From NCBI GenBank assembly GCA_000091205.1, contig AP006484.2: a DNA stretch of 64,000 bases; one strand, given 5' to 3'. Made by a program: the position numbers and the translations under genes. This document shows, in pieces, positions 3,557 through 57,585 of the stretch. The stretch comes from Cyanidioschyzon merolae (Eukaryota). Positions within the stretch are counted from its first letter, which is position 1. Each line of letters starts with the position of its first letter. The notes beneath the pieces were generated by a model. The model was given only the letters and a program-made list of their open reading frames with translations, searched no databases and was not told where the DNA came from.

Positions 3557-6500
3557 TCATGAGCACGTACGCATATCGTTTCTGGTTGCACTCGCAGCAT
3601 CCACAAACGGTACATCCGGATTCAGAAACGGGTGCGCGAGCAACTCGGGGATGCTGGCCCTTCGAACGGGATCCCGCTGCAGACAACGTCGTAGCGTATC
3701 CATGAGCGCTGCGGCCGATGCCTCCGAGCCTATGCCCTGGATCCCAGCCACAGGCGGGTACGCAATGTCGTACGTCGGGTCCGTGATGCAGCGGAGCTTT
3801 TGAATCACGTTCAGGTGTGAGAATGGCGTGCGGCCGTACACCATTTGGTACAGGATGCAGCCGAGTGACCAGATGTCACTGGGGCGTCCCAGCTTGTAGC
3901 GGCGCCGCGAGGGAGCCGCCGCCGTCTCGCCGCTGGCGCCAGCGGAAGCTGCCTCGTTGGTATCCAGAATTGCCTCAGGGGACATGTAGTTCAGGGTACC
4001 CACCTGACTCTCGCGGACAATGTTGGTGGTGTCGTTCTGAATCGCCTTGGCGATGCCAAAGTCAATGAGCTTCAGGACACCCTCAACGAAAAGAAAGTTG
4101 GCTGGCTTGAGGTCGGAGTGCACGATGCGCTCTTCATGAATGGTATGAACCGCTTCCAGCATCTGCTGCCAGTAGAGACGCAGAAAGTTCGCATGCAAGG
4201 GTCGTCCAGCGTTGCGCAGTAACAGCCTCGCGAGGTCAATCTCGCCATACTCCATGACGAGGTAAATGAGACCAGCGTGCTCGCGCACCTCCGAAGCGAT
4301 CAGCTGGATGATATTGTCGCGGCCGCGGAGGCGCTGCAGCAACGCAATCTCGTTGCAGTAGCTCCGGAGCGTCTCGCGATCGGCCTTGCGGATGCGAATG
4401 CGTTTCAGCGCGAAAATCTTCCGGGTTCGCGCGCACATCACCTTGAACACCTTGGAAGATCCCCCACGCCCGACGATTTCTAGCTTGATGTACGGGTATC
4501 CACCAACGTGCACCACAGTGTCGGCGAGGCTTGGCGGTAGGCTCAGCAGGCTCGTGCCGTCACCACCGTCAGATGGAGCCACATTCTCCTTCCCAGCGTC
4601 CAGGCGTCGCAGCGGTCGACGGGGCGCCGCTGCAGCCTCAGCAACTGCCGATCCCTGCACGGCAACAGGGCCGTCGACGGAGCGCTGCATCCCGCGGGGC
4701 TGTTGCGCTGTCGGTGCGTGCGCTTCTCGCGCTGCGGGTGCCACGCACGCACCTGTTCTGATGGACACGTGTCCTGCTGATGCATCGTTTCCCGCGCATC
4801 GTCGCGATTTGCTGTCGATCGGGTTCGATGCCGCGGCAGCCGGGCGCTCATCCGGCGCCGCCTGGGTACCATCAGGCACACCAGCAGGCACATTACGAGA
4901 TATAATGTGAGGCGCTTGACTGGCTTCGGGGTCGCCTTGAGCGCGCTGCATCGGCCAGCGATCGGTCGTCGAGGATTGCCGGGCCGGCACCGCATCCACT
5001 GCGAGTTCGATTGCCTGTGGCGACTGCCGGAGACGCGTCCACGGCGGGGGTGTCGTCGAGGCAGCCGGATCCCGGTCGATGCGCGGTGATGAGAGCGCCG
5101 CCTCTGCACCGCCTGCAGCGTCGAGGGCAGTGCGAGCGCGATGCTCATCGCGAGACGCTTGGTGCGGTGGTGAGAGCGTGGCGCGCTGCTCTGGAGCAGT
5201 CTCCACGGAGCGATGCCAAGACATGGCTGTCGCTGGGGCGTCCTCATCTGGCGGTGGAATGCCGGCACCAGTGCCGGTCGCGGTGCTGAACCCGGTCAGT
5301 GCGGCTGGGTCGAGCGCGGTGGCGAGCCCCGCACCAGATGGTGCCTTGCCAACCCGCGCAGCAGGCTGTAACACATCCGCCGTGATCGTCAGCAGAGAGG
5401 CGGCATCGGGCGCGTCGGCGCTGTGGCCGCTGCTATGGTGCGCGCTGCGCACCACTTCTGGCACGGCGTTTTCAGGGTCCGATGACGCGCACAGCCAGAA
5501 ACACGTGCCGCGCATAAACTGCTCAGCTGCCTCTCGCCGAGCAGCTGCCTCCTCTTCGAGCTTTCGCGCCTTGCGCTCGTTTCCCAATCGCCGCTCGAAA
5601 CGCGCCCATAGCTCGCAGATGCGCGGGTCATGCTCGCCAATGCGCTCTGCTTTCAGGTAGCGAAAAGTATCTCGTAGCTCCTCGGCGTCCTCCTGCTCTG
5701 TGAGTGCCATTTGAAAGCGGACGGCTCCCAGCCAGAGCTCGACATAGTCGCTGTTTCGTCGGTGGCCTCGCGCAGGCACCGCCCGCGTTGCCCGTTCATA
5801 GAGCCGCTGCAGGAGGCGCAACACTGCACGCGCCCTGGCGTCGGTGGTGGGGGTACGCGGTGGCATCCCGCTCGGCAGGAGTGCCCGCTCCAGCGACTGC
5901 AGGAAAGACAGCCAAGTACTCGGACACGACGGCCGCGCGGCGAGTGTCCGCAGGTGCGTGGTGTCGGCACGGGCGAGCGCAGTCTCCAGCGCCTCGAACG
6001 CATATTCCCGATACGCTGGTGGAACCAGAGTCAGAGGCGAGGATCCGAACACCTCGCGGAACGTTGCAGTCCAAGACGCGCTCGGCAACGCGCTCAAGGT
6101 GCGTGGATGCGGCGCTACGGCTGCAGGTGTCTCTGTGCGCTGCGCTTGCGGCGACGTAGCCCCTGGGTCGACTGGTGCCGGTATCAGGTGATCTGCGGCA
6201 TCGCCTCCTGTGCCGACGGCCGCCACAACGTGCAAGCGCAGTAGCGGCGGCGTCATCAGGCCCTCGGCGCTTCGCGTCGGTGAGCACGGCGAGCGCGAAG
6301 CACTGCTGTGCGTCTGCTCCGCCGACTGGCGACGACCTCGAAGCTGCTGAACGCGTAGGCGCAACTTCTCCAGGGTCTCTCGTGTCGGGCGCTTCAGGTG
6401 ACTCGAAGCCGATGTCTCGCTCGTCGCGCTGCTGGCCTGGTCGGGTGCCTGCGCATACGCGTCCGTCGCCACTGCGTCCAGCTGTCCCGCACGGCGGTTT

Positions 6501-6730
6501 AACGCTTGCTTCGACCCCAAAACCCACTTTTCCGAGTCGCTGGCCTCGGGAGTCGCATCACGGCCGCCTGACATGTAGAAATCAAAGCCAAAGCGACGAG
6601 CGGTTGCCGCCTTGCCGGAGCCAGAGCTGCCGCAACGACCTAGAGAGCGACACAAGGGCACTGCTGCTGTGGACGCGGGCCACAGCGCTTCTGCTCCGCC
6701 CCGATAGCGGGCGTTCAAAATTTCGGGCAA
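3557..6730 (-). CDS. MPS1: MPS1/TTK-family dual-specificity protein kinase; kinase domain about 3623-4493, long low-complexity N-terminus
   Basis: C-terminal 290 aa contain all kinase subdomains in one block: GRGGSSKVF, ALK, HSDLKPANFL, DFG, GTLNYMSPE, DIWSLGCILY, RDP..R..ELLAHPFL. This matches the Mps1 pattern (IVHSDLKPANFLIVDG.LKLIDFGIA...DSQVGT.NYM.PEA). The N-terminal 740 aa are A/S/P/R-rich low complexity, so the true start codon is uncertain. Confidence 0.75.
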   Translation of the reverse strand: MPEILNARYRGGAEALWPASTAAVPLCRSLGRCGSSGSGKAATARRFGFDFYMSGGRDATPEASDSEKWVLGSKQALNRRAGQLDAVATDAYAQAPDQASSATSETSASSHLKRPTRETLEKLRLRVQQLRGRRQSAEQTHSSASRSPCSPTRSAEGLMTPPLLRLHVVAAVGTGGDAADHLIPAPVDPGATSPQAQRTETPAAVAPHPRTLSALPSASWTATFREVFGSSPLTLVPPAYREYAFEALETALARADTTHLRTLAARPSCPSTWLSFLQSLERALLPSGMPPRTPTTDARARAVLRLLQRLYERATRAVPARGHRRNSDYVELWLGAVRFQMALTEQEDAEELRDTFRYLKAERIGEHDPRICELWARFERRLGNERKARKLEEEAAARREAAEQFMRGTCFWLCASSDPENAVPEVVRSAHHSSGHSADAPDAASLLTITADVLQPAARVGKAPSGAGLATALDPAALTGFSTATGTGAGIPPPDEDAPATAMSWHRSVETAPEQRATLSPPHQASRDEHRARTALDAAGGAEAALSSPRIDRDPAASTTPPPWTRLRQSPQAIELAVDAVPARQSSTTDRWPMQRAQGDPEASQAPHIISRNVPAGVPDGTQAAPDERPAAAASNPIDSKSRRCAGNDASAGHVSIRTGACVAPAAREAHAPTAQQPRGMQRSVDGPVAVQGSAVAEAAAAPRRPLRRLDAGKENVAPSDGGDGTSLLSLPPSLADTVVHVGGYPYIKLEIVGRGGSSKVFKVMCARTRKIFALKRIRIRKADRETLRSYCNEIALLQRLRGRDNIIQLIASEVREHAGLIYLVMEYGEIDLARLLLRNAGRPLHANFLRLYWQQMLEAVHTIHEERIVHSDLKPANFLFVEGVLKLIDFGIAKAIQNDTTNIVRESQVGTLNYMSPEAILDTNEAASAGASGETAAAPSRRRYKLGRPSDIWSLGCILYQMVYGRTPFSHLNVIQKLRCITDPTYDIAYPPVAGIQGIGSEASAAALMDTLRRCLQRDPVRRASIPELLAHPFLNPDVPFVDAASATRNDMRTCS

Positions 6731-7664
6731 TCGATGCAGGCGCTCACGACATCATGAACATTCTAGAACGTAATTGTACAGAGCAAACATATGCCCGCAG
6801 CGGGACGCGTTCCATCATTCCTGTCCGATATCGCCGATACCGTGCGCGAACACGCCCGGATACCAGCGCACCGACGTGTGCTCCACCGCAGATGCGCTCA
6901 CGCTGTACCGACTCCAGAACGGTTTTTCTTTAAACAACGACAGCTTCGTGGAGCCAGCGACCTGCCGAGTGCCGGACGTTCACCGAACGACACCTCGATT
7001 GCGAACAGGAGGTAGCGCGTACCCCAATAGCCGGTATCCATAGCACGTCACAGCTACCTGTAGGGCGTCGAAGGCGCATCCCTTGGGGGCATACGCACAA
7101 CTGGCAGTACGGATGCACGTATGCATACGGCCGTCGATAGAGGCACGTCGATCACGTCCATTGCATCGAAGGATGGGCCGATCCGTGTACGTGCAGGTAA
7201 CGCGCACATTCTGTACCTTGGGCGAGAGCGCCTCAAAGCGACATGCGCTGGGCGACAGCACGGCGTGTTCGCAGTGTCGTGACTACCACGGATGTGCTTG
7301 CAATGACACCGCGCGACGACTAAAGCGCATCCGCCCAGTTCGCAGCGATTATCCGCAAGCAGCCTCTGATGTCGGCGGGCACCCAAATTTTCGCAAAACG
7401 CGCAATACGTCCTCCAAATCACTGTTGCCTGTTGGCGGCGTCTCGATGGCGACAAGGATGGAACTGGTACGCTTCGATCTGACGGGGCGGATGCATCTGC
7501 CCGGAGACGGAATGCAGGACACCACTGCGGGACCCAGGTCCCGGGCACGCTCTATGGACTTTGTCGAAACACGTGAGCGAACGTCCAGAAATGTTTATTA
7601 AAGTCACACGAGGTGCTGCACAGGTACGCAGCTCGAGGTCGATGCCGCCATGCACGTCTCGTCC

Positions 7665-8387
7665 TCAATCCGAATCCGATGGTGCGTCGCGGGACTCGGC
7701 ATCAGGGTGCAGGCTCACGCCGGTGATCCGGTGCCGCCGAAGCGTTTTCGCAAGGCGCTCCAATGAAAAGCGCACTCCAGCGCGGCCCGCAATGACCCAC
7801 TCGCCCAGACCGGCAAAGGTGCGCACGACCTGTTGGTTCCGGATCAGCAGAATCGATGGTAGGACCTGGACGCCGAGCCGCTCGCACATGGACGGAAACC
7901 GTTCCGCCTCAGCGACCCAAAAGCGCGTCTCCAGATGCTGCTGTGCCAGGGAACGCAACGCGTGTGCGAGCGCATCCTGCAGCGGCTGGGTTTCGGGCGC
8001 TGTTCGCAAACGCCAAAACACGCCAACAACGCGCTCTGAGGATCGGCAGGCCTCGAGGAGCGCCTCCTCGTCATCAAGTTCATGCAGCCTACCATGCCCG
8101 AGCGCGCACCATCGGGAGCGCGCAGCCGCTGCTCGCTTCAGCGCCTCCAGACGACGCTCGCGCAGCGCTTCGAGCTCGGGGTCCGTCTCGGTCGTCGTCG
8201 CAGAAGCGCCGAAAGAGGCGCCGCGCTCCTGCTCCCGAAGCTCCCCGTCCAGGATAGCCTCCACACGCTCGGCAACTGCCTCGACAACACGCTGCACTGC
8301 GCTTTGGGAGCCAGTCGCAGGCTCTTTCCGGGCAAATCCCTGCGTGCCCCCGAGCGCTGCCACACTCGACGACTGCGACGTCGGCAT
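7665..8387 (-). CDS. Thioredoxin-fold phosducin-like / TXNDC9-like protein
   Basis: Coiled-coil N-terminus, then a thioredoxin-like fold without a CxxC (GHGRLHELDDEEALLEA...RVVGVFWR...RFWVAEAERFPSMCERLGVQVLPSILLIRNQQVVRTFAGL), typical of TXNDC9/PhLP. The opposite-strand 303-aa ORF is S/R-rich low complexity and is rejected. Confidence 0.55.
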   Translation of the reverse strand: MPTSQSSSVAALGGTQGFARKEPATGSQSAVQRVVEAVAERVEAILDGELREQERGASFGASATTTETDPELEALRERRLEALKRAAAARSRWCALGHGRLHELDDEEALLEACRSSERVVGVFWRLRTAPETQPLQDALAHALRSLAQQHLETRFWVAEAERFPSMCERLGVQVLPSILLIRNQQVVRTFAGLGEWVIAGRAGVRFSLERLAKTLRRHRITGVSLHPDAESRDAPSDSD

Positions 8388-9109: not shown

Positions 9110-12100
9110 TTACCCGAAAAGAACAGCTACACCTTCCAGCGCAGTATCGTCGTCACCATTGATCGATTCATCTTCAAGATCCATGGTATACAACTGTGTC
9201 CGCTTTTTCCAACTCTGCAGTAGCCTTACCGAAAGCGGCCTGTGCTTCTGGGACGCCATCTTCGATGAGGGGAACGCCATCGCAGCTTCGTTCAACTGCG
9301 TGCTCGCCCCGTGATTGAAGCTGCGTCTCACAGCCACGTTACCAAGAGCTCGCATACGCTCGCCACCATTTTCGCCGGGAAACATCGAGGCGTTCGGATG
9401 CTTACTAGGGAGCTCGCTCGTAGTGAAACATGCCGGACTGAAGCCACGCCTGTAGAGTTCATCGTTGACTGCGGCGTGCACCTTTCGCACGTCTTCGGGG
9501 CGGCTGTACCATCTCTCGTCTGTCAAGGCCCTAGCGATCGAGTTTTCCAACTGCAGTAGCGACTCCGTGTCTATTGCCAAATAGCCCTCCGCCGGGTGTA
9601 TCCAGAAGCTCAAGTGCTTTCGCAGGAACGCGAAAGCTTTCCGAGACGCACTCTCAAAATGCCAGTCCAGACACTTGCGCAAAAAATCTCGGGCCCAATT
9701 GAATAACTGCACGCGTCGGCTGCAGCTTTCGAGCTTCAGCATCGCGACAGCTAACTCGACGAGCGCAACAGCGGCTTGGTCAAAAGCTTCGTTTGCGGAA
9801 GATGCTTCGTTCGCGTGGGGAGCGCCATGGAGAACCTCATCCATCGTACTGGATTCCTCATCGGAAACCTCTTCATAAGCAAGTTGACCAATGCGTTCAG
9901 CAGTTGCCCGCAACAGCGGTAACCAGATCTCCGTCACATCAGTTTCCCAGATATCACTGCCCTGGTGTGCTTGTGCCTCGCATTGGAGCAGAGTCTTCAT
10001 CACGTGACGCACAATGAGGGCTAGATACTCGATGTCAACTTGAGGAATCCCTCTTAGACAGATTTCTCGATAAAATTTCAGGGCATCCGGATCAGGATCG
10101 AGCGCAAGCATCCGCTGGAAGAGAAGCAGGCCTCGTGCGGAGATGTGAATGAACGAACGACGCGTTTTCAGCAACTCCTTTCGGTGCTGCCTGGAGTCGG
10201 CGATCGCCTCAGGAAGCAATCCGGCTCTGAGCATCCATTCCATGACCAACCGGTACCACTGAGCGATCTCGATTCGAGAAGGGGCAAGCACTGAAATGTC
10301 TCCACGACCATCAGGGCGTAGGCTGAATAAATGGTTCAGAGCAGCTACCATTTGAGGAAGCGTCGTTGGGAGCAGTTCTCCAAACATGACGGTTTGCTTC
10401 CATATGCTATGTTTCATGCTTACGCTTAGCATTTGTTCAAACAAGGTCAAAAGTTGAAGAAGACAGGTGCGATTGGTGTCTGCATCAGCTGAGGGTGCCA
10501 AGAAAGCTATAAGGAAGCGTTCCGGATCTCGAAGGACTTCGTGCTGAAGAGCCATTGTTTTCCAGATTCCCAAGGTCTCCTCTAAAAGCGCGTTCAAAAC
10601 AGGTATGCTCTTTTCCGGAGAGTCGAGAGAACACACGATAACTGGAACGCACTTCAAAAGCGAGCATCGAGCTGGAAAGGGCATCGGTGCCTCACGCAGC
10701 GCTTGTTGGATGGACGGCAGCAGTACTTGTGCGCCCGAAACTGTTTCGCTCCCTTCTGACCGCAAGAGAAGCGCTAAGATTCCTCTACACAGAGCGTCAA
10801 ACCACTTTTCCCTCCGATGCAAGCCCATTGCAGACCACCGAGCATGCTCTGTGCATGGTAGCTGTTGGATACGCTCAAGCACTCGCAGTGCCGCTTGTAT
10901 GGTGCGTATCTGTGCGCCTTCGATTCTGGCGAGCAGCGGGGCACACCCGAAAAAAACATGCAAAATCATATGAATCTTATTGGCATCTTGGTCCAGGTCA
11001 AGCGTATCCACCATGCTCAGGACAAACTCAACTCGTTCACCAAGCTGCAGAACTTGAGTCAGTCGAGCGTTTTCCTCGCCTCCAACCTCAGAGCTAGCGC
11101 CTCGCGAGGATGTCTTAGAAACCCCTGGAGGTTTCGAAACACCAGATCCTCGTCCAAGGCTCGGAAGCAATGGCGCGAGGACCTCACTCATTGTGAAAAA
11201 CATTACTTCTCGTGTCTCATCTAACAGCATTTCGATAAACAAGGCTGATTCGGCATCGCTTGGGTACTGCCCGTTTCGAACAGAAAGCAGTCCCCTCCAG
11301 AAACTATGCAAATGTGCCGGCTCTTCGCGAAAGCAGAATTGCTCCATGACCGGGCCTGTGCTTCTGCGATTTCTGTGGCAATCCATGCGGTCTACAGCAC
11401 GCGTAACGACCCAGTCCAGACACGCATCTCGCCAATTCTGACAGATTTTTCGAAGAAAATCTCGCGTTCGACTCCTCAGAGACGAATTCAGTTTTGGCTG
11501 CTCAGCGTTGCGCGACAGAACAAAACTCATGAGGCGCCAGCGCGGATCATTTGCGTCCAAGACCGAATTTTCCACGATATCCTTTCCTGTGAACAAATAG
11601 GCAGGTAGGCTTGTGTCCATGCAGCACCGCATCCACGCCGCATCGAGCAGCACAACGACGCACTGCGCGGTGAGAACCGTCTTCAGCACCTGATCGCGGC
11701 AACAAAAAGCCAGCGCAAGTTCTGCAATCGAGGCCCACGGGTGGCTCACTAGTCGCCCTAACAGAAGTATGAATGATGACCATATTGCAGGGCGTTCTTG
11801 CAGATGAGTGAGCGTCGACTCGAACGCGAGAAAAGTGAGTTCTATGACCGCTTGAAGCAAAGATAGCCTTTCCTCCCATCTGATCGGAGCATCTATGAGC
11901 AATCCGACGTCACCTGTATATGCTTCGTCGAAACATATGACGAAGCTTATAAGTGTTTCCAAGAGAGAGCCCAGCACGTCACGCTGCTTCGGCAGCATCG
12001 GCTGTGCCCTGGTGATCCAGCAACCGAGCGCTTCGATGGCTAACCAGTCGTAATCTGCACAAGCTACAAGCCGGTCTCCAAACATTTGTTCAAATCTCCG

Positions 12101-13069
12101 CCTGAGAAACAGCACCAGGCTTGTCGGTACGTCCGCCTCCAACAGAAGCTCGACTGGAAAACCTTCCAACAGCTTCAACAGAAGCTGAAGCGATGCCCTA
12201 AATGCCGGTCCGGGGTCCGTGAATTCGCAGCGTAACATATGGAGCGCCACAAGAACGATACGGCTGCCTTCCTGCACAAGACGCTCACCGATCGCATCAG
12301 CAGTCAGCTGAACAGTTGCCGCGCCTGCTGACTGACGTATTCCCGTCTCTTCAGCCACTGCGGATAAGATTTCTTCAATTATCGTAGAGAAAATCTCCAT
12401 AGATTCAGCGCTTTCCAGAGGACTTCCGAGCAAATGATCCAGTACCCGAGAACCATAGCTGCTCTCCCAATACTGCACCACAATTCGAGCGAGAAACTGG
12501 GCGACCTTTCTCCGCTCTCCACAAGAAAATGCTCTCTTTCCAGCTGCTAGTGTGCCATGGCAGTGATTCCATAACTCAACTGCAAAAGCGCAGAGCGTCT
12601 GACACATATCCAGGGTGTCCGTACGCGCGCTTAGAGCCTCAGCCTGCGAACGCTCGATAAGGTCGACCAACAGCTGAAACCCATACTGTACAGCGGCCGT
12701 TTCCACTACTCTAGCAAAGTTCGAGTCTGCATCTGGAACAGCAGATCGTGTCAAACTTTCATAGCATAGATTAGCTGCTATGAGGTCCCGTCCCAGCGCG
12801 AAAATCGTGTCTGCGGAGAAAAACTTTGACACATTACAGAGGAACGTATGGGCTTGTCTGCGGCTCTCTCCGGTGCTTTTTCCCCAGTGCAGCACTGCCA
12901 GAGCTGAAACAACTTCCGCCGTAAGATCAGACGCCATTTCCGTTGCAAATCCAGAAATAGTCCCCTTGGCGCTCAGAAGCCACGCAGCCACCACCGCTGT
13001 TCTAAAGTGGAACGACGTCGCGCGCGTACAGTAGTTGCGAGAAGCCCGCCCTAGACCGGACGTCTCCAA
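9110..13069 (-). CDS. Large (1319 aa) uninterrupted ORF, predicted alpha-helical-repeat protein of unknown function
   Basis: Single 3.96-kb ORF with no internal stops and a leucine-rich helical character (HEAT/ARM-like), non-repetitive. No catalytic motif recognised by eye. Confidence 0.5.
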   Translation of the reverse strand: METSGLGRASRNYCTRATSFHFRTAVVAAWLLSAKGTISGFATEMASDLTAEVVSALAVLHWGKSTGESRRQAHTFLCNVSKFFSADTIFALGRDLIAANLCYESLTRSAVPDADSNFARVVETAAVQYGFQLLVDLIERSQAEALSARTDTLDMCQTLCAFAVELWNHCHGTLAAGKRAFSCGERRKVAQFLARIVVQYWESSYGSRVLDHLLGSPLESAESMEIFSTIIEEILSAVAEETGIRQSAGAATVQLTADAIGERLVQEGSRIVLVALHMLRCEFTDPGPAFRASLQLLLKLLEGFPVELLLEADVPTSLVLFLRRRFEQMFGDRLVACADYDWLAIEALGCWITRAQPMLPKQRDVLGSLLETLISFVICFDEAYTGDVGLLIDAPIRWEERLSLLQAVIELTFLAFESTLTHLQERPAIWSSFILLLGRLVSHPWASIAELALAFCCRDQVLKTVLTAQCVVVLLDAAWMRCCMDTSLPAYLFTGKDIVENSVLDANDPRWRLMSFVLSRNAEQPKLNSSLRSRTRDFLRKICQNWRDACLDWVVTRAVDRMDCHRNRRSTGPVMEQFCFREEPAHLHSFWRGLLSVRNGQYPSDAESALFIEMLLDETREVMFFTMSEVLAPLLPSLGRGSGVSKPPGVSKTSSRGASSEVGGEENARLTQVLQLGERVEFVLSMVDTLDLDQDANKIHMILHVFFGCAPLLARIEGAQIRTIQAALRVLERIQQLPCTEHARWSAMGLHRREKWFDALCRGILALLLRSEGSETVSGAQVLLPSIQQALREAPMPFPARCSLLKCVPVIVCSLDSPEKSIPVLNALLEETLGIWKTMALQHEVLRDPERFLIAFLAPSADADTNRTCLLQLLTLFEQMLSVSMKHSIWKQTVMFGELLPTTLPQMVAALNHLFSLRPDGRGDISVLAPSRIEIAQWYRLVMEWMLRAGLLPEAIADSRQHRKELLKTRRSFIHISARGLLLFQRMLALDPDPDALKFYREICLRGIPQVDIEYLALIVRHVMKTLLQCEAQAHQGSDIWETDVTEIWLPLLRATAERIGQLAYEEVSDEESSTMDEVLHGAPHANEASSANEAFDQAAVALVELAVAMLKLESCSRRVQLFNWARDFLRKCLDWHFESASRKAFAFLRKHLSFWIHPAEGYLAIDTESLLQLENSIARALTDERWYSRPEDVRKVHAAVNDELYRRGFSPACFTTSELPSKHPNASMFPGENGGERMRALGNVAVRRSFNHGASTQLNEAAMAFPSSKMASQKHRPLSVRLLQSWKKRTQLYTMDLEDESINGDDDTALEGVAVLFG

Positions 13070-14150
13070 CTGATGTGCAGACGCCTCCCAGTGCTTTTGA
13101 AGCGGCCACCCACTACTGCTTCCAACTGTTTCTCATATAGTTCAACTTTTAGAGGTTGTCCAACAAAGTTCTCTTGTGTAAGCTCTGGAGGTCTTCTCTC
13201 CAGCACCGCACAATTCCTTATATTGGTTGCGGCGTTAAAATCTCGATCCACGAGCTCCATCCGTTTCTTGCCATCACTCCCTGTACTTACCAATGCAAGT
13301 AGCCCATGAACTTTCGCTCTCCTTTCCATTTGCCCCTCCGTCAGCGGTCCATACTTTTCTACATCCTCAGGGCTCCTCTGGCACTTTTCTATCTCCACCC
13401 TCAGGAGTGTACAGCCCAGCTCGTGGTGTGTGTAGGACGTTCGAAACTCATCTACAGGTATCGCAACAAAACGTCTTGCGCACTCATTGCACGTTCTTGT
13501 TGACGGAACTGATGTACACCCTGTTTGGGTCTTCCATTGCCCTACTCCGTACGCTACTACGAGTCTCTGACTTTCATCCTCCTTAAGGGCACTCAACTGA
13601 TTGAAAAAGTTGGCAAATGCCCGCTGCTTCCCACAGTACAGAATCATACGCAGACGAATCCATCGATTCCTTGTATACTCCTCCCACAGCGCATCACAAT
13701 GCGCAATGTGAACTTCCATAAACTCCCGAAAAAAGCTTTAAAGTCCGCTCCTCGGCTCGTCACCTCGCTCATAGCTTCCAGGTGCTCTTTCACTCCTGCA
13801 TTCCACATCTCAATTTTCTTCCTCGCATTCATGATTTCCGATTCTCGATAGTATCTTGCTCTCGAGAATCTCAACAGGCGCATGTCTTTCTGACGTAAGT
13901 TGCAGTTCGTACCATCTTCCGCGCGCGTGGGTACTGCGATGGTTATGATATATGTGTTCCCGGGCTCTGCACCAACGACAAAGTCGTTATCTGGCACCTC
14001 CTGCGTCGCGGGACCCGCCTCCTTCTCATGTTCATGACTCGCCGCACCAACGACGAAATCGTTCTTCTGCACTTTCTGCGTCGTAGGATCCGCCTCCTTC
14101 TCATCTACACGCTTCGTCGCGGGCGAAGCCGAATGCAGACCAGAAGGCGA
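13051..14150 (-). pseudogene. TnpB/Fanzor-like nuclease element, copy B (subfamily 1). Best-preserved copy: one frameshift, N-terminally truncated
   Basis: Two adjacent minus-strand ORFs (13644..14072 and 13051..13719) join with a single frameshift to give VVGAEPGNTYIITIA (RuvC-I)...RARYYRESEIMNARKKIEMWNAGVKEHLEAMSE...GKQRAFANFFNQLSALKEDESQRLVVAYGVGQW...PSTRTCNECARRF (Zn ribbon)...DEFRTSYTHHELGCTL...LTEGQMERRA...VDRDFNAATNIRNCAV (RuvC-III)...TGRRL. Confidence 0.65.
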
Positions 14151-15100
14151 GCCCTACCGCGCAGGAGGTGCAGAAGAACGATTTCGTCGTTGATGCGAAC
14201 CCCGGGAACACGAATATCATACCCATCGCAGCACCCAAGTATAGGGAAGATGCTAACACCGGCAACTTACGTCAGAAAGACATGCGTTTGGTGAAGCCCT
14301 CAAGGGCTAGATATTACCGAGAATCGGGAATCATGAATGCATGGAAGAAAATTGAGACGTGAAACGCAGGAATGAAAGAGCACCTAGAAGCTATGAGCGA
14401 GAAGACGCGCCGAGGAGCGGACTTTCGGGCTTTTCTGAAATTCATGGAAGTTTGTGTTGCTCATTGGAAGGCGCTGTGGGAAGAATATACAAAGCCCCGG
14501 TGGGCCCGTCTGCGTATGAACTCGTACAGTGGGAAGCAGCATGCATTCGCGAACTTTTTCAATCAGTTTAGCGCTCTCAAGGAGAATGAAAGTCAGAGGC
14601 TCGTAGTAGCATACGAAGCATAGAGCTCGGCGTCGAAAAAAGGGTGTAGGCGATCTCCAACGACAAGAACGTACAAAGAGTGCGCATGCCGTTTCGTCAC
14701 GATACCGATAGATGAGTTCCGAGCGTCGTATACAAACCACAAATTGGGGTGCACGCTTCAGAGGGTCGAGATGGCAAAGTGCCAGCGGAGCCCTGAGGAT
14801 ATGAAAAAGTACAGAGGGCCGACGGAAGAGCAAATGGAAAGGAGGGCGAGACTTCGAGGATGGCTTGCACTAGTGAGTTCAACTACCAATGGCGAGAAAC
14901 GCATGGAGTATGTGAACCGAGATTTTAATGCCGCTATCAATATAAGGAGATGTGCGGTGATAGAAAGAAGACCACCAGAGTTGGCACGAGAGAATTTCGT
15001 GGGGCAACCTTTCAAAGTGGGACTATATGAGAAACAGTTTGAACCAGTTGTGAGTGAGCGGTACAAAAAGACTGGGAGGCGTCTGCTCATCAATTAGATA
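14150..15100 (+). pseudogene. TnpB/Fanzor-like nuclease element, copy C (subfamily 1), inverted head-to-head partner of copy B
   Basis: MQKNDFVVDANPGNTNIIPIA...RARYYRESGIMNAWKKIET* (TGA where copy B has TGG/Trp)...MKEHLEAMSE...GKQHAFANFFNQFSALKENESQRLVVAYEA*...HKLGCTLQRVEMAKCQRSPED...VNRDFNAAINIRRCAVIERRPPEL...TGRRLLIN*. Multiple stops and frameshifts. Confidence 0.65.
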
Positions 15101-15144
15101 TAGCTTGTTCCGGTCGGGTTTCCCGCCGCTACTGTGTACTGCCG

Positions 15145-18100
15145 GTGACGTTCGACTTTCGAACAGCGTTCGTTGTCGTGGGTGGTTTTCGTGAGTGCAA
15201 AATGGCTTTTTGCGATTTGAGTGTCTTCACGACGGAACTGTCGTGCGCTACAGGTAATGCACGTCTTCGCAGTCGCCAGGCAACCCTGTTCACCTTGAAG
15301 GGTCGCGTTCACAGGACTGCGTCGGATCTTCGCAGGACTCACAAAATCAGTCGTTTGGTGAGCATGAACGTTAGCGAAACACTCACAAGCACCAAAGCTG
15401 TTCAAAATTTGGAGCCATTAGGCACCAAAGAGAGCGTCCTGGATGCTGCAGTCTCGGCGAAAAAAGTCCAAGCTCCGGGCACCGCAGCACTTTACTTTGC
15501 TTACGGCAGCAATATGTGCCCCCGAGTACTGGGACCCGACACTGATCTTCTCTATTTGTTGCGACGAATATCGTCGTCGTCCTGGGAAACCGGAGAGCCG
15601 GCCGTACTGGAAGGGTTCAGCCTTGAGTTCAGCTGCCCTGGCGTGGAAGCCCTCGGAGAACCAGCATTCGCCAACATTGTGCCTGCCGTCGAGGCCAATT
15701 CTGGTGCACCCCGTGAGCAGTATGATACAGAGGTTCACGGTGTTTTGTTTCGATTGACACAAGCAGAATTAGACCGCATCCTATTATCGGAAGGGGTCGG
15801 GTTAGGGCGCCAGCGCGTCGTCAACGTCACAGTACGCACCTACCGCAACGTACTCTATGAAAATGTCAAGACAGTCGCGTATGTATCATGGGAGATACGG
15901 AATCCACAAAAGCCCTCGTCACGTTACCTCGAGCTCATCCTGGAAGGCGCTAATTACTTTCACTTGGATATTCGGTATGTTCGAACGCTTCTGCGCAAGG
16001 CCTCCGGTGAGTACACCTCTGCCGCGCTCCCAGCCACGAATAATATTCAGAGCGACATGGTGAAAATGCTTCAGGACATACAGGTTCCCCAACAGATTGT
16101 GGCGTTTTATCAAGAAATGCACCACCTCAAGGGAACGGTTCGATTCATCATGCCTCCGATGCTTGACGAGAGCTCACGGGCGACTAGGCCGCTGTTGCTG
16201 TTCTTCCCCGGCCTAGATGGCACTGGCATCAGTATTGCTACACAGCTTAGAATGTTTCAGTCAAAATATGATGTTCGCATTTTGGTGATTCCTCGGGACA
16301 ACCGAATGCCGCTGGATGAATTAGGGAACACAATTCTGGATTGTTTGGAGTGCCTCTGGAAACAAAAGACAGAGGTACTGATGTCGAAAGAGGTATCGCA
16401 CGAGCCTCAGGTTGCACCGGATGTTCTCGCTGAGAGCATGGGCTGCTTATTGTGGTTTGAGTGTGTAAGAGCTTTTCGCAGACGAGCGAATCTCAAATGC
16501 GGCGCTGTTGACCCCTGCGAAAGCCCTACTCGCGCTCTGGCAAGGCACGTCATGCTGGTGAACCCAGCAACTAGTTTCAGCAAATCAGCTCTCGCTCCAG
16601 TTTGGGAAAATATCTCTGCATTACCCGACCCCGTTTACCACGTTGCTCCGTACATATTTAGCCCTATTCTGATCGATCTGCTCCAGCTTTTGGCAGAGCC
16701 CAGTATGGCGTTTCAGTCACTCCAGCGAATGGGTGTCCTCCGCGAAATCTTGCCCAAGGAGACGCTCCGTCATCGGGTGCGACTCATTCGCGACTTTCGC
16801 TATGCAGCCGATGACTTTGCGGCTGCAGCAGAGTACGGTGCTGAGCAATACACAATCGCAGTTGCAGCGAATGATGCTCTGCTGCCCTCTCTAGCAGAAT
16901 CAGAGAGTCTCCTTGGAAAGCTTACGCTGCCTTTTCTCGAAATTCAAAAAACGGGGGTCCGGAGGATGAGTAGCCTTCCTGCTACTGTTGTTCGGTACGT
17001 TGCAACTCAAGGTGGGCACGCGCTGCTCCAGTCGGGGAGCTTCGATGCTTACCAGCAGCTCATGGTTAAGGCTGAACGCGCACATGATCGCATTCGAAGA
17101 GGTCTTTTGGAACGAATACCCAAAGCTGCGAAAGATTCACATACCCGTTCGTCTCCGAGCCAGCATACAACGGACGTCACCGACAAAACAATGGGCTCAG
17201 GTTTCGTAACTGAAACCCTCGACAACGACCAAACACTTGTTGCCAGGTCGCCAACAAATGGACAGCTGGATCGATATGCGATACGGCAGAGGACTGGCTC
17301 GTCCGTGCGGGATTCAACCACGGGCTCACGGTTTTTCCCGAGGAACAAGTTCGCGCTCGGCGAGACGCGGTGGCAGCTTCAACGACAGAGGCGTCTGCTT
17401 TCGCCAATTTTTCTGGATTTCGACAAGGTACCCTTATCATCATCAACGCGTCCGGTTCTGTTTGTTGGAAATCATACCCGTTTGGGGCTCATCGATTTAC
17501 CATTTCTGATTGACCAAGTCTGGAAGAGCCGGGGTGTATTCGTGCGGGGTCTGGCACATCCCATTATATTCGCGATGCAGCAGCGGGGTCAGTCTCAATG
17601 GGAAAGTGCGGGAGATCGGCAGCGCACGCGAGCCCGCGACTTTGCGACGAATCTCGCTGCACTAGGCGCTGTATCTGTATCACCGCGAACGGTTTACAGT
17701 CTCCTTCGGAACGGCGACTCTTTATTGCTTTTCCCAGGCGGCGCCCGTGAAGCATATAAGAGACGTGGCGAAAATAATCAAATTTTTTGGCCGAAGGATG
17801 AAGAGTTTGTGAGACTTTGTGCACGCCTCGATGCTGTTATTGTGCCTTTTGCCTCTTTTGGCCCTGATGACAGCTTCGACGTCGTGGCGGACGGAGAAGA
17901 ACTCTTGAACGTACCTTTTCTGGGCGGCTTTATTCGCAATCAGTTTGAAAGAATGGGTGTTCGCGCTGATATTGTGCGTGCTTGGCGCTCGCCGCTTTCC
18001 GAGCAGCCCTCTGATGCGGCGATCGCAGACCTGTTGATCCCGCTGCTGCGACCGCGGCCGCCACTGCGACTCTACTTCCAGTTTTTCGATCCGGTATATC

Positions 18101-18324
18101 CCGATGCATCCCTTGTAAGAGATCGGCAACGAGCGCAGAGCATCTATGAGGACATCCGCTCTACAGTCGCGAATGGTTTGCGTCATCTCGAATGCATCGC
18201 CAAAAGACAGGACGCATACCTCCATTTTCATCAGCGTTTCCTGTACGAAAGCCTTCATCAGGGTGCACAGGCACCAACACTGACACCCTGGTCCACTGTA
18301 GATGCGCATTTGCTGCTGGACTGA
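15145..18324 (+). CDS. Tri-domain protein: gamma-glutamyl cyclotransferase-like (AIG2/GGCT) + alpha/beta-hydrolase + acyltransferase (phytyl ester synthase / ELT-like), with an S/T/R-rich presequence
   Basis: YFAYGSNMCPRVL...VHGVLFRL (GGCT fold motif). Then LLLFFPGLDGTG...ILVIPRDNRMP (hydrolase). Then LFVGNHTRLGLIDLPFL and LLLFPGGAREAYKRRGENNQIFWP...VIVPFASFGPDD (PES/DGAT-like acyltransferase, as in plant PES1/PES2). The N-terminus (RLRSRQATLFTLKGRVHRTASDLRRTHKISRLVS) resembles an organellar transit peptide. Confidence 0.65.
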   Translation: MTFDFRTAFVVVGGFRECKMAFCDLSVFTTELSCATGNARLRSRQATLFTLKGRVHRTASDLRRTHKISRLVSMNVSETLTSTKAVQNLEPLGTKESVLDAAVSAKKVQAPGTAALYFAYGSNMCPRVLGPDTDLLYLLRRISSSSWETGEPAVLEGFSLEFSCPGVEALGEPAFANIVPAVEANSGAPREQYDTEVHGVLFRLTQAELDRILLSEGVGLGRQRVVNVTVRTYRNVLYENVKTVAYVSWEIRNPQKPSSRYLELILEGANYFHLDIRYVRTLLRKASGEYTSAALPATNNIQSDMVKMLQDIQVPQQIVAFYQEMHHLKGTVRFIMPPMLDESSRATRPLLLFFPGLDGTGISIATQLRMFQSKYDVRILVIPRDNRMPLDELGNTILDCLECLWKQKTEVLMSKEVSHEPQVAPDVLAESMGCLLWFECVRAFRRRANLKCGAVDPCESPTRALARHVMLVNPATSFSKSALAPVWENISALPDPVYHVAPYIFSPILIDLLQLLAEPSMAFQSLQRMGVLREILPKETLRHRVRLIRDFRYAADDFAAAAEYGAEQYTIAVAANDALLPSLAESESLLGKLTLPFLEIQKTGVRRMSSLPATVVRYVATQGGHALLQSGSFDAYQQLMVKAERAHDRIRRGLLERIPKAAKDSHTRSSPSQHTTDVTDKTMGSGFVTETLDNDQTLVARSPTNGQLDRYAIRQRTGSSVRDSTTGSRFFPRNKFALGETRWQLQRQRRLLSPIFLDFDKVPLSSSTRPVLFVGNHTRLGLIDLPFLIDQVWKSRGVFVRGLAHPIIFAMQQRGQSQWESAGDRQRTRARDFATNLAALGAVSVSPRTVYSLLRNGDSLLLFPGGAREAYKRRGENNQIFWPKDEEFVRLCARLDAVIVPFASFGPDDSFDVVADGEELLNVPFLGGFIRNQFERMGVRADIVRAWRSPLSEQPSDAAIADLLIPLLRPRPPLRLYFQFFDPVYPDASLVRDRQRAQSIYEDIRSTVANGLRHLECIAKRQDAYLHFHQRFLYESLHQGAQAPTLTPWSTVDAHLLLD

Positions 18325-21300
18325 TGCTTACAAGTTGCTTGAAAGGAACGTCAGCATGTGGCGCTCCCAAGATAGCTTCCTTCTCGGGCATCGGCGGCGA
18401 TGCACCTCATTTTCTCTCCGGAAATCGGATACCCACTGGAAGCGGGCATTGCGGCGCCGTTTCATATGCGCTTGCACAGGTGCAAGCGCGGCGACTTGTG
18501 TGCAGGCACAATATGCTGCCGTGCACGCACGTGCACGCTTGCATCTGTTCTTTCTGAGGCTGAAGGACGTTGACATGAACCAGGGATACTCCATGGTGCG
18601 CTTGATATCGACGTGCTCGCCTCGATGAACAGCCGCACACCGCTCTGATCTGCAGGCGGGCACGTTGCGCATCGAAGCATGCTCATCGCTCAGTAATGTC
18701 GATTGATGGAGCGTGGTTATCGGTTACGAATTTCCACGGAAAACAGTACTCGGTTGGACTGCAAGGCGCTTTAGCGTCACAGGAATGCTGACCGTACTTT
18801 ACATGTACTCTGCACCTGGTGGTGTACATCCATTGCTCTCTCTCCTCGCAGCCGCGTCGTCCAGGTGGAGACCTCAGCGTTTTAGCTCAATGCCGACACT
18901 GTGTAGTAAATGATCATTTTGAAAAGTTGCTCAACACAAAGCCGCCGGGCGCTCCGGAACAACAGCACATTACCGTGTTGATTGAATCGTTTACAGCTCG
19001 ATGGCGAAAATGGTTGCAAGCATCGTTTCAGGGGGAATCACACCATGGCGAGCAGCTCGCAGTCGATATTCTCGCCACACGACAATTGATCAGCTTATCG
19101 TACACCACTTAGAGCAGCCGTATCTGTTAATGACGCATCTGCTCTACCAGTTTTTGCGCACACCGGCGTGCGTAATGCATGTTTATCGTCCTGAACGCAT
19201 CGATGGGAATCGTACAGGATAGATTCTTGCATTCGTTGTACGCTCTCGTCGAGGACCTAGAGCGCAACGCTTACGACCTGCAGTACGTTCAGCGCCATAG
19301 GCTAACACCAAGCGACGCAAGCTATCGGTCATTCCTTTTTCCATATCATTGAACGATCTGGTTGATGCTTGCTACAGTGCAAACGGAACCGTCGGCTACC
19401 AGAGCGCTATCATGTCCACCTGTCAGGGATAATCCGCAGTAGCCACCACAACTCTTGTCTCCTGCTTCCGAATGAATCGTATAAAAGCATGTGACTCTGC
19501 TCGATTCGGCGCTGAGCGTGTCGAACTGAGTTCTAATGTCGTCATGCAGCGTTTCGGGACGCCTCATGACAACCATCATGCCCAGCTCCCTATGAGACCG
19601 TGCCCTGGAAAGTTGAGCCGCTCCATCTTGTTTCCGTTCGGGTTATGGTTTCGTCGTTTTAATTAAGAGTTATAGGGACCGCTCCAATGTCCTGGATCCC
19701 AGGATCTTCGCCCATAAGGAAGTCTTTCTCTTCATTTAAAGTGAGTGGTTGCGAACAAGCATGGTTGCTTGACTCAGGTCTAGGTTCCACGAATGGCTTG
19801 CAGACTGGTTTTACTTCGGTCTCGATGATATCTGTGAGATTCGTTCCATTTCCTCCATGGACACGTGAAATCCTGAAGGAGCTTCGCCAATGCTCTTCGT
19901 GAAGTTGGTCGAACGCCTCGTAGTCGTTCGCTGAGACCAGCTCATCCTTCGACTTCTCCTTTACTTGGCCGAATAGTATGAAAGTAGCCACCATACTCTG
20001 CATCTGTTTTTTCCTAGTGACTCATACGTTCTCGGAGGGAGATGGGGCTGAATCTCATCTTCTCCACGCAAGTATTTCATGTTCATTAAGCATCCTTTCG
20101 AAACCTTCTACGTCGCGAGGGGGCGCACGCACCGGAGCGGGTCTCTCCGCTCCCTGCCGCGCACGAGCAGAGAAGAAACAAAGCAGTTTAGGGTTGGTGA
20201 AAGTAGTAGAGTTCAAGTCGTCAAAGAATGATTTGCGGAAGAACGTTGGAATGGTTGCGAACTATTCTTTTATGGGCCCGTGAGCTTAGAGATAGCTTTC
20301 GACATCAACGCAGACACTCTCGACAGTAATTGGGAGAACGTACTTGCACAAAGAGCAGGTCGACGCCACTAGCAGCTGCGTTCTGCTTGACCGCTTATGA
20401 ACAGTAGAAGTTGTCGCTGTCAAAGGTTATGATAGAGGAGCATGGGATGAGGAAGCCATGAAGAGCTTCACAGAAGGATGAAGCATCTAGTGATGTCGAT
20501 TGTTTCACGATCTGGAGGCCACATCACGATTAAATTGCCGCTGGTGCTGATATTGTCGGTATTGCGAGCTTATTGCTCATTTTTGAATACTGGTTTGGCC
20601 CATTTTCAGTACTCATGTACAGGTCTACCATTCTTGCCGCCAAAAGTCTCATCGGGTGAGAGGAGCACCATTCCATCTCGCATGAGGCGTTCGCATTTCA
20701 GAAGGATATGCTTCGTGTGTTGCTCAACACGACGCAGTCTCCAAGACAAACATGTTTTTCATCTTTGCATCTCCGCGGCTCACCAGCACAGTTCTAAATA
20801 AAGGCACGGAAACTTGGTATCCTGTGGCAACTTTGGCAAAGTATCCTTCAGAGGAAATGGAGTGGAAGGGAATGGTGAGGATACTGTCTTACAGGTAGAG
20901 TTTGATAGGTTCTGTTTGCGGTGCACGATGTCCATGATAAGGACTGCGAGAAAGAGCAAGAAAACTCACCTGGCAGGCAAACTTGACTGAATTGCACAAG
21001 TAATGCTGCTCTGTTGCGAGCCAGCAGTAACATCCCAAAGTCGTTCCAAACCGTCCAGCAATCCGTAGGACACATACGTGCCGTCAAATACCTGCGATGA
21101 AGACAACCAAATATGTTCGTACTGGCGCAGGCGTTCCGGAATGCACTGCCATGACTGTAAGGCACGTGCACAGCATCCTGCACAAACAACATGGTAAGCA
21201 TAAAATGGAACCGTTTCACTAACTGAAGTGAACACTGCAAAGTTTGTTCCTCGTCCAGCTGCCGGCAACATCAGCCTTTGCTGACCTTTTCCATAATTGT

Positions 21301-22199
21301 TTCGATTTCCTTTTACTGATTTCCAGCTTCAAATAAAGCGGCCTCTCCTGTCCTGACAACTCCGTTGTCAGCAGTTGAAGGGTGCAAATAGCGGCGTTTA
21401 ACTCGCCTTTTCATAGCTTCTGGTTAATTTTGAAGCATTTCACGCACAGGCGAAATTTATTCTCTACACTGCACGTGCTTTTTTCATCATGTTTAGATAA
21501 CGCCTTGGCGCACCGTTTGCAGCTGTGAAACATCGATACGGCCAAGTGTTCCCATACATCCACTACAAATCCTCCTCCGGACGGTGCTCTGCGGCGCGCG
21601 AATCCTTGCTTCATCACTTTTAAAGTCCTTAACAGTGTAGACCACCTGGATGCCCTCTGTTTCAGCACCCAGTGCCGCGCGCCTGGATCATGGGCTCCCT
21701 CTGAGCATTCCCCTCGGCAAGTTTGCTGTGTGCTGTACGTGCAAGCGCATATTGCTCTATTCGATGGAGGATTTGTGGAACGCGATTTCACCCATTCTAA
21801 ACCAATTTCCGGAAGGTAAGTCCAGAGTGGAGAACAGATCGAGAACTTTGGATCTGTCTACGCTTCTTTCTTGCGAGGCTGGGACGCACCTTCCACGGGA
21901 AGCTATCTCAATTACGTCTTAAGTCCATTCCACGGCTCTTCTCCATAAAAAACAGAAGAACCGCAAGCTTCCGGGATCATGTCCTGTGAAAGCATCACGC
22001 AAGAGCCGAAAGCATTTTCGTATACAGCCAGAAAAAGAGAAGCATATCTTTATCAGGTAAAATCAGTTATTGGCATAACGGGTTTTTTGAAAGTTCGAGA
22101 TGAGCTTGAGACCATGTCGCCAAGGAGCGGCTTCGGGCTTTTTCTTTCCTCGTAAATCCGGCGACACGAATTGTCCCGCCAACGAGTGCGTTGAAATAG

Positions 22200-22430
22200 A
22201 AAGTTCGAAAGCTGAGAGCACGCATGATCTGTGCAAGCGACTCGTGAGGAACGAGGAAAACAGGACATTTTTTGGAACAAATTGTTTAGTATTATAGGTT
22301 ATTTTACGAGCCCTTGCTCGAGCGCGTCGCGAATCATCTTGATGACGGGAAGGCATCGAATTCCGGTGGCGGAGACTCGAGGAAGTCACCCCGCATACCT
22401 GATGCAGAATTTGGAAACTGCATTTTAGTT
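22200..22430 (+). repeat. Solo copy of the conserved 3-prime non-coding module of the TnpB/Fanzor-like element family
   Basis: Alignable by eye to 40945-41200 (Rep1a), 28640-28880 (downstream of copy D) and 37430-37570 (downstream of copy E). Shared core: TATTTTAcgAGCCCttGcTCGAGCGCGTCGCGAAtCATCTTGATgACGG...CATCGAATTCCGG...AGACTCGgAGGaaTCAC. Confidence 0.5.
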
Positions 22431-23080
22431 CGTGACCTCCTACAGCAGCACATCGAAGACAACTGCGGCGGATCTAAAAATCATTCGAGCAAAATACCAC
22501 AAGTCACGAACATCGTGATTAGTTCTGTGTTTCATTTCCATTTGACACTGATGTAGCCACGCACCGTTGCTCGCTTCACAGAAGGGGGCGTAGCTCGTGT
22601 CGTCCGCTAGCTCCAGTGCGAGAATGCCCAGTGGGTCCAACGCCAGTCGGCACGCAAGGCTTGTAAGCGAGAAAAGAGTCACTCTGCTGGTGAATTTACA
22701 CCGAGGCCAGAAGAACCGCCCTCATGCGGTGACTGCTGTGGAAAAAAAGGTCCAGACCCTGGCACTACGCTGATACCTCACCGATCCCTGTCGAGCATCC
22801 GTCACACCGTCGCACATAGAAACTGACCGGCACACGCACCTCAGATCGTACAGGAACGGGAACAAGTAGAACCGGATGGATCTCCAGGCATTCGAACGAG
22901 CACCTACATCCAGCGGCACTGCGGCGCAAGGCACATGACTTGAACAGCGAACCCGAAGCGCACGAGTGCACCATGCTTGAAATAGTCATTTTGTTCATGG
23001 TTACTTTGCAGGCTCATGATTCCTTTTGCCGATCGCTGCGTGACTCGGTTATACAGAGAATGCTAGACCGTCTTTTTTAT

Positions 23081-57290: not shown

Positions 57291-57585
57291 GGAGGCGCCT
57301 CTGACTAAGTGTTATTTTAATCTTCCTGGTGGTGGAATGTTTTTAGTTTTACTGAGCCTATGGTGCAGATTCCACGATGATTTCGGATACGATTTTTCGT
57401 CGTTGCACTTGCGAGGGTGCACCGGTCAGAAGTAGAGCCGCGAACTTTCCGCTGTTTAAGACGCCGAATAAGTTTCCGTGGGTAGAAGGGCATCGTTTGC
57501 TTCTTTGTGTCGACCGGCCAAAAGAGTGGAGCCTGTGAGAGGTACGTCCACCACGACGAGGGATCTGTAGGGCAGAAGCCTGCCA

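Follow-up and report, generated by a model that had tools for sequence, protein, structure and literature searches.

What kind of protein is encoded by an open reading frame (ORF) that seems to join a gamma-glutamylcyclotransferase (GGCT) with two domains of lipid metabolism? This question is raised by a locus in a 64,000-nucleotide stretch of Cyanidioschyzon merolae DNA (contig AP006484.2, assembly GCA_000091205.1), which is called the window below. The original prediction, made from the letters of the window, placed there one long ORF with an organelle-type presequence, a GGCT/AIG2-like domain, an alpha/beta-hydrolase and an acyltransferase of the PES/ELT type, PES being the phytyl ester synthases. 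The ORF contains the gene CMB069C. Its product is best explained as a red-algal plastid enzyme of the ELT/PES family, consisting of the hydrolase and the acyltransferase, with an extra GGCT domain that is most likely a working cyclotransferase. We assign this reading a probability of about 0.6. The gene is annotated and its GGCT domain is already flagged by automatic databases. The fusion, its spread among red algae and its mismatch with the published DGAT2 label are apparently undescribed: the literature on PES together with GGCT/AIG2, on phytyl ester synthase in Cyanidioschyzon and on the accessions, as far as its incomplete coverage reaches, contained no paper on a GGCT-ELT fusion.

Gene identity and the fusion in red algae

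The ORF runs without interruption from 15145 to 18324 on the plus strand, exactly as predicted, and has 1059 codons. The chance of a stop-free run this long is about 8e-23. The GTG at 15145 is merely the mechanical first start. A stop codon lies shortly upstream of it, and the first ATG is found 57 nt downstream, at 15202. The annotated 1040-aa protein (BAM78883.1/XP_005535169.1) begins at this ATG, and so do two published constructs. The biological coding sequence begins at ATG 15202 and spans 15202..18324 (+), which gives 1040 amino acids plus the stop codon, and the predicted length of 1059 aa holds for the ORF rather than for the protein. All residue numbers refer to the 1040-aa protein. 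The gene is CMB069C, because the published cloning primers for CMB069C fit the window exactly (forward at 15202..15217, reverse at 18304..18321). Its protein falls in a 90%-identity cluster with the annotated protein, a "hypothetical protein, conserved" of Cyanidioschyzon merolae 10D, whose UniProt entry M1VEG5 carries the automatic name "Gamma-glutamylcyclotransferase". The flanks of CMB069C are syntenic with those in Cyanidiococcus yangmingshanensis, the upstream gene being 32% identical and the downstream HECT/RCC1 gene 78% identical.

A profile search with the GGCT domain, which covered 1.84 billion representative proteins, yielded 1478 matches at E<=1e-3, and the best 150 were inspected. 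Nearly all of these are free-standing proteins of 150–350 aa. Seven are long and carry the GGCT domain close to their N-terminus, namely the CMB069C cluster itself (P0001), a Cyanidium protein (P0004), P0027, P0078, P0087, P0111 and P0161. The last five, together with P0022, were analyzed by a Pfam scan and a cluster-membership lookup. The orthologues of CMB069C include a 925-aa protein of Galdieria partita, a 928-aa protein of Agarophyton chilense (Florideophyceae; also a 950-aa ORF in a complete transcript), a 916-aa MMETSP transcript product, two Logan contigs encoding 945 and 961 aa, and a partial transcript of Compsopogon caeruleus that carries the GGCT and hydrolase domains only. Further orthologues were found in Cyanidiococcus, Cyanidium and two metagenomic Cyanidiales. 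Jointly, the scanned orthologues match the AIG2_2, Abhydrolase and DAGAT/Acyltransferase models, and no one protein matches all of them above threshold. The three domains stand on a single ORF in at least nine sequence clusters, which cover Cyanidiophyceae and at least two other red-algal classes. The proposed check for the same fusion in other genomes thus gave a positive answer, and because the same domain order recurs in independent genomes and in complete transcripts, CMB069C is taken as a single gene and not a merge.

No fusion outside red algae was found among the best 150 of the 1478 GGCT-domain matches. The closest named free-standing relatives are from the cryptophytes Hanusia phi and Rhodomonas, and cryptophytes gave stand-alone relatives only. 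A full-length profile built from ten sequences returned at least five matches, all of them from Cyanidiales, and this search is uninformative on the distribution outside red algae. Judged from these sequences, the GGCT-hydrolase-acyltransferase arrangement is standard among the red algae sampled. The architecture had been called non-standard, which is correct relative to green plants only.

The three domains and the presequence

The GGCT/AIG2_2 domain comprises residues 93–270 (15478..16011, +). The motif YFAYGSNMCPRVL, quoted when this domain was proposed, is present in the protein, and the proposal is borne out by both profile and fold. With 36.8 bits the domain exceeds the gathering cut-off of Pfam AIG2_2 (PF13772), which is 27, and the profile check suggested for the N-terminal domain thus gave a positive answer. 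A four-sequence profile searched against the Protein Data Bank (PDB) reached human GGCT at E 2e-8. The YFAYGSN motif (residues 98–104, 15493..15513, +) aligns with YFAYGSN of human GGCT, and the catalytic-type Glu197 (15790..15792, +) is opposite human Glu98, which reads Q in 3cry. Consistently, the six best PDB matches in Foldseek are all human GGCT chains, including 3cry and 2i5t (E 4e-9 to 3e-8, TM 0.71–0.72), and B. subtilis YkqA, Arabidopsis At5g39720 and ChaC2 are found at lower ranks.

Human GGCT (C7orf24; 2pn7, 2i5t, 2rbh, 3cry) shares with the CMB069C domain the PF13772 match, the YFAYGSN(L/M) motif and the glutamate, and the two superpose with a TM of 0.72 at 23–24% identity. In contrast, the human protein is a free-standing 188-aa cytosolic enzyme that belongs to the gamma-glutamyl cycle, whereas the domain in CMB069C is embedded as a module within a lipid enzyme of 1040 aa and has an insertion of about 20 residues between the first strands. 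Tyr98, Phe99, Ala100 and Tyr101 as well as Glu197-Gly198 are invariant in the orthologues (10/10), and positions 102–104 vary. Compared with distant red algae, CMB069C shows an identity of 31–38% in the GGCT domain, 23–33% in the hydrolase, 25–36% in the acyltransferase and 12–26% in the linkers. Because the identities of the three domains are similar and far above those of the linkers, the GGCT domain appears to be under constraint comparable to that on both lipid domains. These data suggest that the domain most likely keeps cyclotransferase chemistry and is apparently active.

Residues 283–645 (16048..17136, +) are assigned, on conservation, an AlphaFold2 model and Foldseek, to an alpha/beta-hydrolase of the esterase/lipase/thioesterase type with a predicted Ser-Asp-His triad. 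The candidate triad residues are Ser412 in the GxSxG-like elbow AESMG (16435..16437, +), Asp558 (16873..16875, +) and His606 (17017..17019, +). All three are invariant in the 19 sequences of the alignment (19/19), and in the AlphaFold2 model each immediately follows a beta strand, which is where the canonical fold has them. The region can be aligned with orthologues from red algae and homologues from green algae that pass Abhydrolase_1/_6 or carry PF00561/PF12146. The best Foldseek matches of the hydrolase domain include RutD, RedJ, FAS-TE and many esterases (E 1e-7 to 1e-5). The hydrolase named in the original prediction is supported by all of these lines. When the hydrolase or the acyltransferase region alone was searched against PDB sequences by phmmer, only chance matches were obtained.

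The acyltransferase domain comprises residues 710–1020 (17329..18261, +) and is assigned to a probable PlsC fold and to the ELT/MFAT type by profile, predicted fold and homologues. Pfam DAGAT (PF03982) scores 23.0 bits against a cut-off of 22, and the match covers only profile positions 119–199 of 297. His758 (17473..17475, +) and Asp765 (17494..17496, +) form a conserved His...Asp motif, which is invariant in the nine sequences that cover it (9/9), and the sequence FPGGAREA lies at residues 844–851. A search with this domain gave 85 homologues. The best named ones are land-plant proteins (Setaria, Sorghum, Morella and Zea), which carry PF03982, PF00561 and PF12146, the ELT/PES architecture, or bear the plain name "Acyltransferase". 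Most of the 85 are bacterial stand-alone proteins of about 285 aa with PF03982 and PF01553. By size and Pfam content these bacterial proteins are taken to be of the Slr2103/MFAT type, no Slr2103 sequence being named among the matches. No named DGAT2 was present among the 85 homologues. In published trees, the ELT acyltransferase domain and Slr2103/MFAT form sister groups, and DGAT2 stands apart from them (PMC12048435).

CMB069C therefore has the domain pair of an ELT/PES protein, with an acyltransferase of the ELT/Slr2103 clade downstream of a hydrolase on the same chain. What characterizes a canonical DGAT2 was not found, there being no full-length DAGAT match and no DGAT2 among the closest relatives. 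Because the DAGAT match is partial, the relatives are ELT-type or stand-alone bacterial proteins and none is a named DGAT2, the "type-2 DGAT" label is unsupported. The published "DGAT2" label for CMB069C looks wrong, and the sequence points to an ELT/PES-type enzyme instead, in agreement with the acyltransferase type that had been predicted.

The presequence comprises residues 1–92 (15202..15477, +). Its pLDDT (predicted local distance difference test) is below 35 in the AlphaFold2 model, which predicts disorder. Serine and threonine make up 23% of it versus 13% of the whole protein, and it is net basic with few acidic residues. The N-terminus reads MAF, with Phe at position 3. In 9 of 10 orthologues a Phe, often in the form F-V/I-x-x, falls within the first 11 residues of the protein as called, and in the tenth, P0164, it does so when counted from an internal Met. 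The recognised determinant of plastid targeting in rhodophytes and glaucophytes is an N-terminal motif based on Phe (PMC7038456). Consistently, TargetP, WoLF PSORT and PredAlgo all give "Pt" for CMB069C (table in Mori et al. 2016). The N-terminus thus bears features of a red-algal plastid targeting sequence, and a plastid location is predicted.

The AlphaFold2 model was computed from a 19-sequence alignment and has a mean pLDDT of 68 and a predicted template modelling score (pTM) of 0.53. It shows three folded blocks with disordered segments between them. The linker of residues 647–708 (17140..17325, +) has a pLDDT below 50, is predicted to be disordered and is 15–34% identical to orthologues. 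An NCBIfam scan of the CMB069C protein gave no match.

Surroundings of the gene in the window

An inverted duplication about 1.05 kb long (12990..15173) fills the gap that separates CMB069C from its divergent upstream neighbour. Its arms pair 12990-13732 with 14431-15173 at 75% complementarity, and 13731-14023 with 14142-14434 at 80%. It stops about 30 nt ahead of the CMB069C ATG. At the syntenic Cyanidiococcus locus the duplication is absent and the intergenic gap is about 660 bp. The upstream gene lies at 9110..13069 (-) as a mechanical 1319-aa ORF with a weak, sub-threshold Xpo1-like match. It aligns to a 1111-aa Cyanidiococcus orthologue only from residue 211 on, so the true start of this gene is probably well within the ORF. 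The overlap of the upstream ORF with the inverted-repeat arm is confined to its non-homologous extension. Downstream of CMB069C, 4.7 kb (18325..23080) contain no ORF above 130 aa and no Rfam match, and the Cyanidiococcus orthologues are about 0.87 kb apart. An Rfam scan of the whole window gave no match.

A degenerate DNA pattern for DFNAA(I/T)NI occurs at six sites in the window versus 0.03 expected, at 2454, 13220(-), 14921, 27950, 43127 and 57137. All six are within short broken ORFs that share ...RDFNAAINxRRCA...PxEL, and by sequence they are assigned to a dispersed, decayed repeat family. By eye, the family resembles the C-terminal RuvC motif of TnpB/Fanzor. The idea that the ORFs just upstream of CMB069C are TnpB/Fanzor remnants was dropped as an unverified resemblance, with no significant match in Pfam, NCBIfam or PDB. 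Two copies of one element of the family, 42611..43399 and 56621..57304, are about 14 kb apart. Their 116-aa minus-strand ORFs are identical, and so is a stretch of more than 100 residues in their plus-strand ORFs. Because the copies are near-identical, a recent duplication is implied. The region 4001..8000 is GC-rich (0.62–0.65 versus about 0.51 elsewhere) and coincides with a 1057-aa ORF at 3557..6730 (-) and several overlapping ORFs in other frames.

Known relatives, alternative readings and proposed role

The closest known systems are Arabidopsis PES1 and PES2 (ELT family; At1g54570 and At3g26840). In these and in CMB069C a targeting sequence, predicted in the case of CMB069C, is followed by an alpha/beta-hydrolase with a Ser nucleophile and then by an acyltransferase. 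The acyltransferase signature is a partial DAGAT plus a PlsC-type one, and plant ELT-type proteins are among the closest relatives of the CMB069C domain. Both PES and CMB069C are induced in nutrient-stress conditions (for PES, established knowledge and PMC12048435). CMB069C differs in the GGCT domain of about 180 residues between presequence and hydrolase, in the 60-residue disordered linker, in a hydrolase too divergent for the Pfam cut-off, and in a localisation experiment that gave endoplasmic reticulum (ER) and not plastoglobules. PES1 and PES2 are not listed as Arabidopsis counterparts of CMB069C in the supplements of Mori et al. 2016. Cyanobacterial Slr2103/MFAT, which acts in the synthesis of triacylglycerol (TAG), phytyl ester, acyl-plastoquinol and plastoquinone-B (PQ-B), has the same type of acyltransferase domain but is a stand-alone enzyme without hydrolase or GGCT domain. 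Canonical eukaryotic DGAT2 is distant kin in the same acyltransferase superfamily, visible in the weak partial PF03982 match, and is set apart from CMB069C by the architecture, the lack of a full-length DAGAT match, the ELT/MFAT-type relatives and the lack of a lipid-droplet effect.

Several observations weigh against a plastid ELT/PES enzyme with a working GGCT domain. No Pfam hydrolase model matches the CMB069C protein itself, and its Pfam Acyltransferase (PF01553) score is under the cut-off; among the profiles proposed for the lipid domains, only DAGAT reaches its cut-off. The His...Asp spacing is H-x6-D versus the canonical H-x4-D of PlsC. In the YGSN motif, Gly102 is replaced by Phe in three orthologues, those of Agarophyton (P0164) and the similar Logan sequences P0111 and P0161, and Ser103 and Asn104 are each changed in one. 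Cyanidiales also have a separate ChaC-type, glutathione-specific cyclotransferase (PMC6629376), so the GGCT domain is not required for glutathione breakdown as such. In the sole localisation experiment, an N-terminal green fluorescent protein (GFP) fusion of CMB069C was scored as ER (Mori et al. 2016). According to the supplementary primers, of which the reverse one maps to 15746..15765, this reporter contains residues 1–188 of 1040. It carries the presequence and the first half of the GGCT fold and ends ahead of Glu197. The ER call is treated as weak because the reporter stops in the middle of the GGCT fold and a truncated half-domain may misfold. Plastid targeting by the predicted organelle-type presequence is supported by composition, disorder, Phe3, the N-terminal Phe of the orthologues and three plastid predictors, and is opposed by this reporter.

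The ER call is one of the points in favour of another reading, in which CMB069C is a type-2 DGAT of the ER in TAG synthesis and the N-terminal regions are accessory. The protein is labelled DGAT or type-2 DGAT in PMC6098107, PMC8152781 and PMC13306765, a DAGAT match is present, and transcript and protein are induced under inhibition of TOR, when TAG accumulates. CMB069C was the sole "DGAT" transcript induced by rapamycin (PMC6098107), and its protein was up by day 3 of rapamycin (PMC13306765). This reading is nevertheless improbable. The 23-bit match is restricted to profile positions 119–199, the closest relatives are ELT-type plant and stand-alone bacterial acyltransferases with none of the 85 named DGAT2, and the hydrolase domain is complete, as in PES1/2. 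Overexpression from the APCC promoter gave no lipid droplets (PMC6098107), and three predictors and the Phe motif indicate the plastid, against a reporter that is cut within a folded domain. An ELT/PES enzyme fits both published results: the gene is induced when TOR is inhibited, and its overexpression yields no cytosolic lipid droplets.

It is rather doubtful, too, that the protein is simply a PES whose GGCT-like domain has no catalytic role and was retained in red algae for folding, regulation, oligomerisation or docking to membranes or plastoglobules. The changes at positions 102–104 would fit such a domain, plastid neutral-lipid metabolism has no known gamma-glutamyl substrate, and green-lineage ELT proteins function without a GGCT domain. 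On the other side, the catalytic-type Glu, the adjacent Gly and the Y-F-A-Y residues are invariant across red-algal diversity, the domain is conserved like both catalytic lipid domains and far more than the linkers, and its predicted fold superposes on the active human enzyme. The gene-model merge that the original prediction had offered as an alternative, in which two or three adjacent genes were joined by assembly or gene calling, has a negligible probability. No evidence in its support was found, and it is refuted by the stop-free length, by the same domain order in at least nine clusters and in complete transcripts of other red algae, and by the synteny in Cyanidiococcus. Moreover, the full coding sequence was amplified by PCR from genomic DNA, cloned and expressed in C. 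merolae as a single FLAG-tagged protein.

Arabidopsis PES1/PES2 and cyanobacterial Slr2103 esterify lipophilic alcohols, and a plastid ELT/PES enzyme in the red alga would act likewise. CMB069C would be imported into the plastid, where thylakoid glycerolipids or acyl-thioesters may supply its hydrolase domain with acyl groups. The acyltransferase domain would then esterify lipophilic alcohols that are released or exposed under stress, such as phytol, diacylglycerol and possibly plastoquinol, and the esterification would serve to sequester breakdown products in nutrient stress. In the same compartment and the same stress regime, the GGCT domain would convert gamma-glutamyl-X to 5-oxoproline and X. 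It may be a salvage activity that shares location and regulation with the lipid reaction, or a chemical coupling may exist between the two. For such coupling there is a precedent by analogy in butirosin biosynthesis, where BtrH and BtrG pair acyl transfer with gamma-glutamyl removal by a GGCT-fold cyclotransferase; they differ from CMB069C in an unrelated acyltransferase fold, in being separate proteins and in belonging to bacterial secondary metabolism.

A more far-reaching proposal is unlikely. According to it, CMB069C is the missing eukaryotic acyltransferase for acyl-plastoquinol/PQ-B and phytyl esters in red algae, and/or the GGCT domain removes or cyclises a gamma-glutamyl group of a substrate, acyl donor or conjugate in a step coupled to the lipid reaction. 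C. merolae is reported to contain acyl-plastoquinol and PQ-B, with PES named as a candidate for the unidentified acyltransferase (PMC11973298). The mass-spectrometry data for these compounds are disputed, and PES1 is the closest relative of Slr2103 (PMC12174987). Which enzyme makes the plastoquinone esters of eukaryotic algae is acknowledged as an open question (PMC11973298, PMC12174987). If a coupled GGCT domain is real, it would be a red-algal-specific link between gamma-glutamyl and plastid neutral-lipid metabolism, for which no described counterpart was found.

CMB069C is in use for TAG engineering under an apparently wrong "type-2 DGAT" label in C. merolae, a genetically tractable alga with efficient homologous recombination. 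Its reclassification as an ELT/PES-type enzyme would explain the missing lipid droplets and points to plastid esters, namely phytyl esters, acyl-plastoquinol and PQ-B. The conserved fusion with the GGCT domain may be read as a "Rosetta-stone" hint that gamma-glutamyl/5-oxoproline metabolism is linked with stress-induced lipid remodelling in the red-algal plastid.

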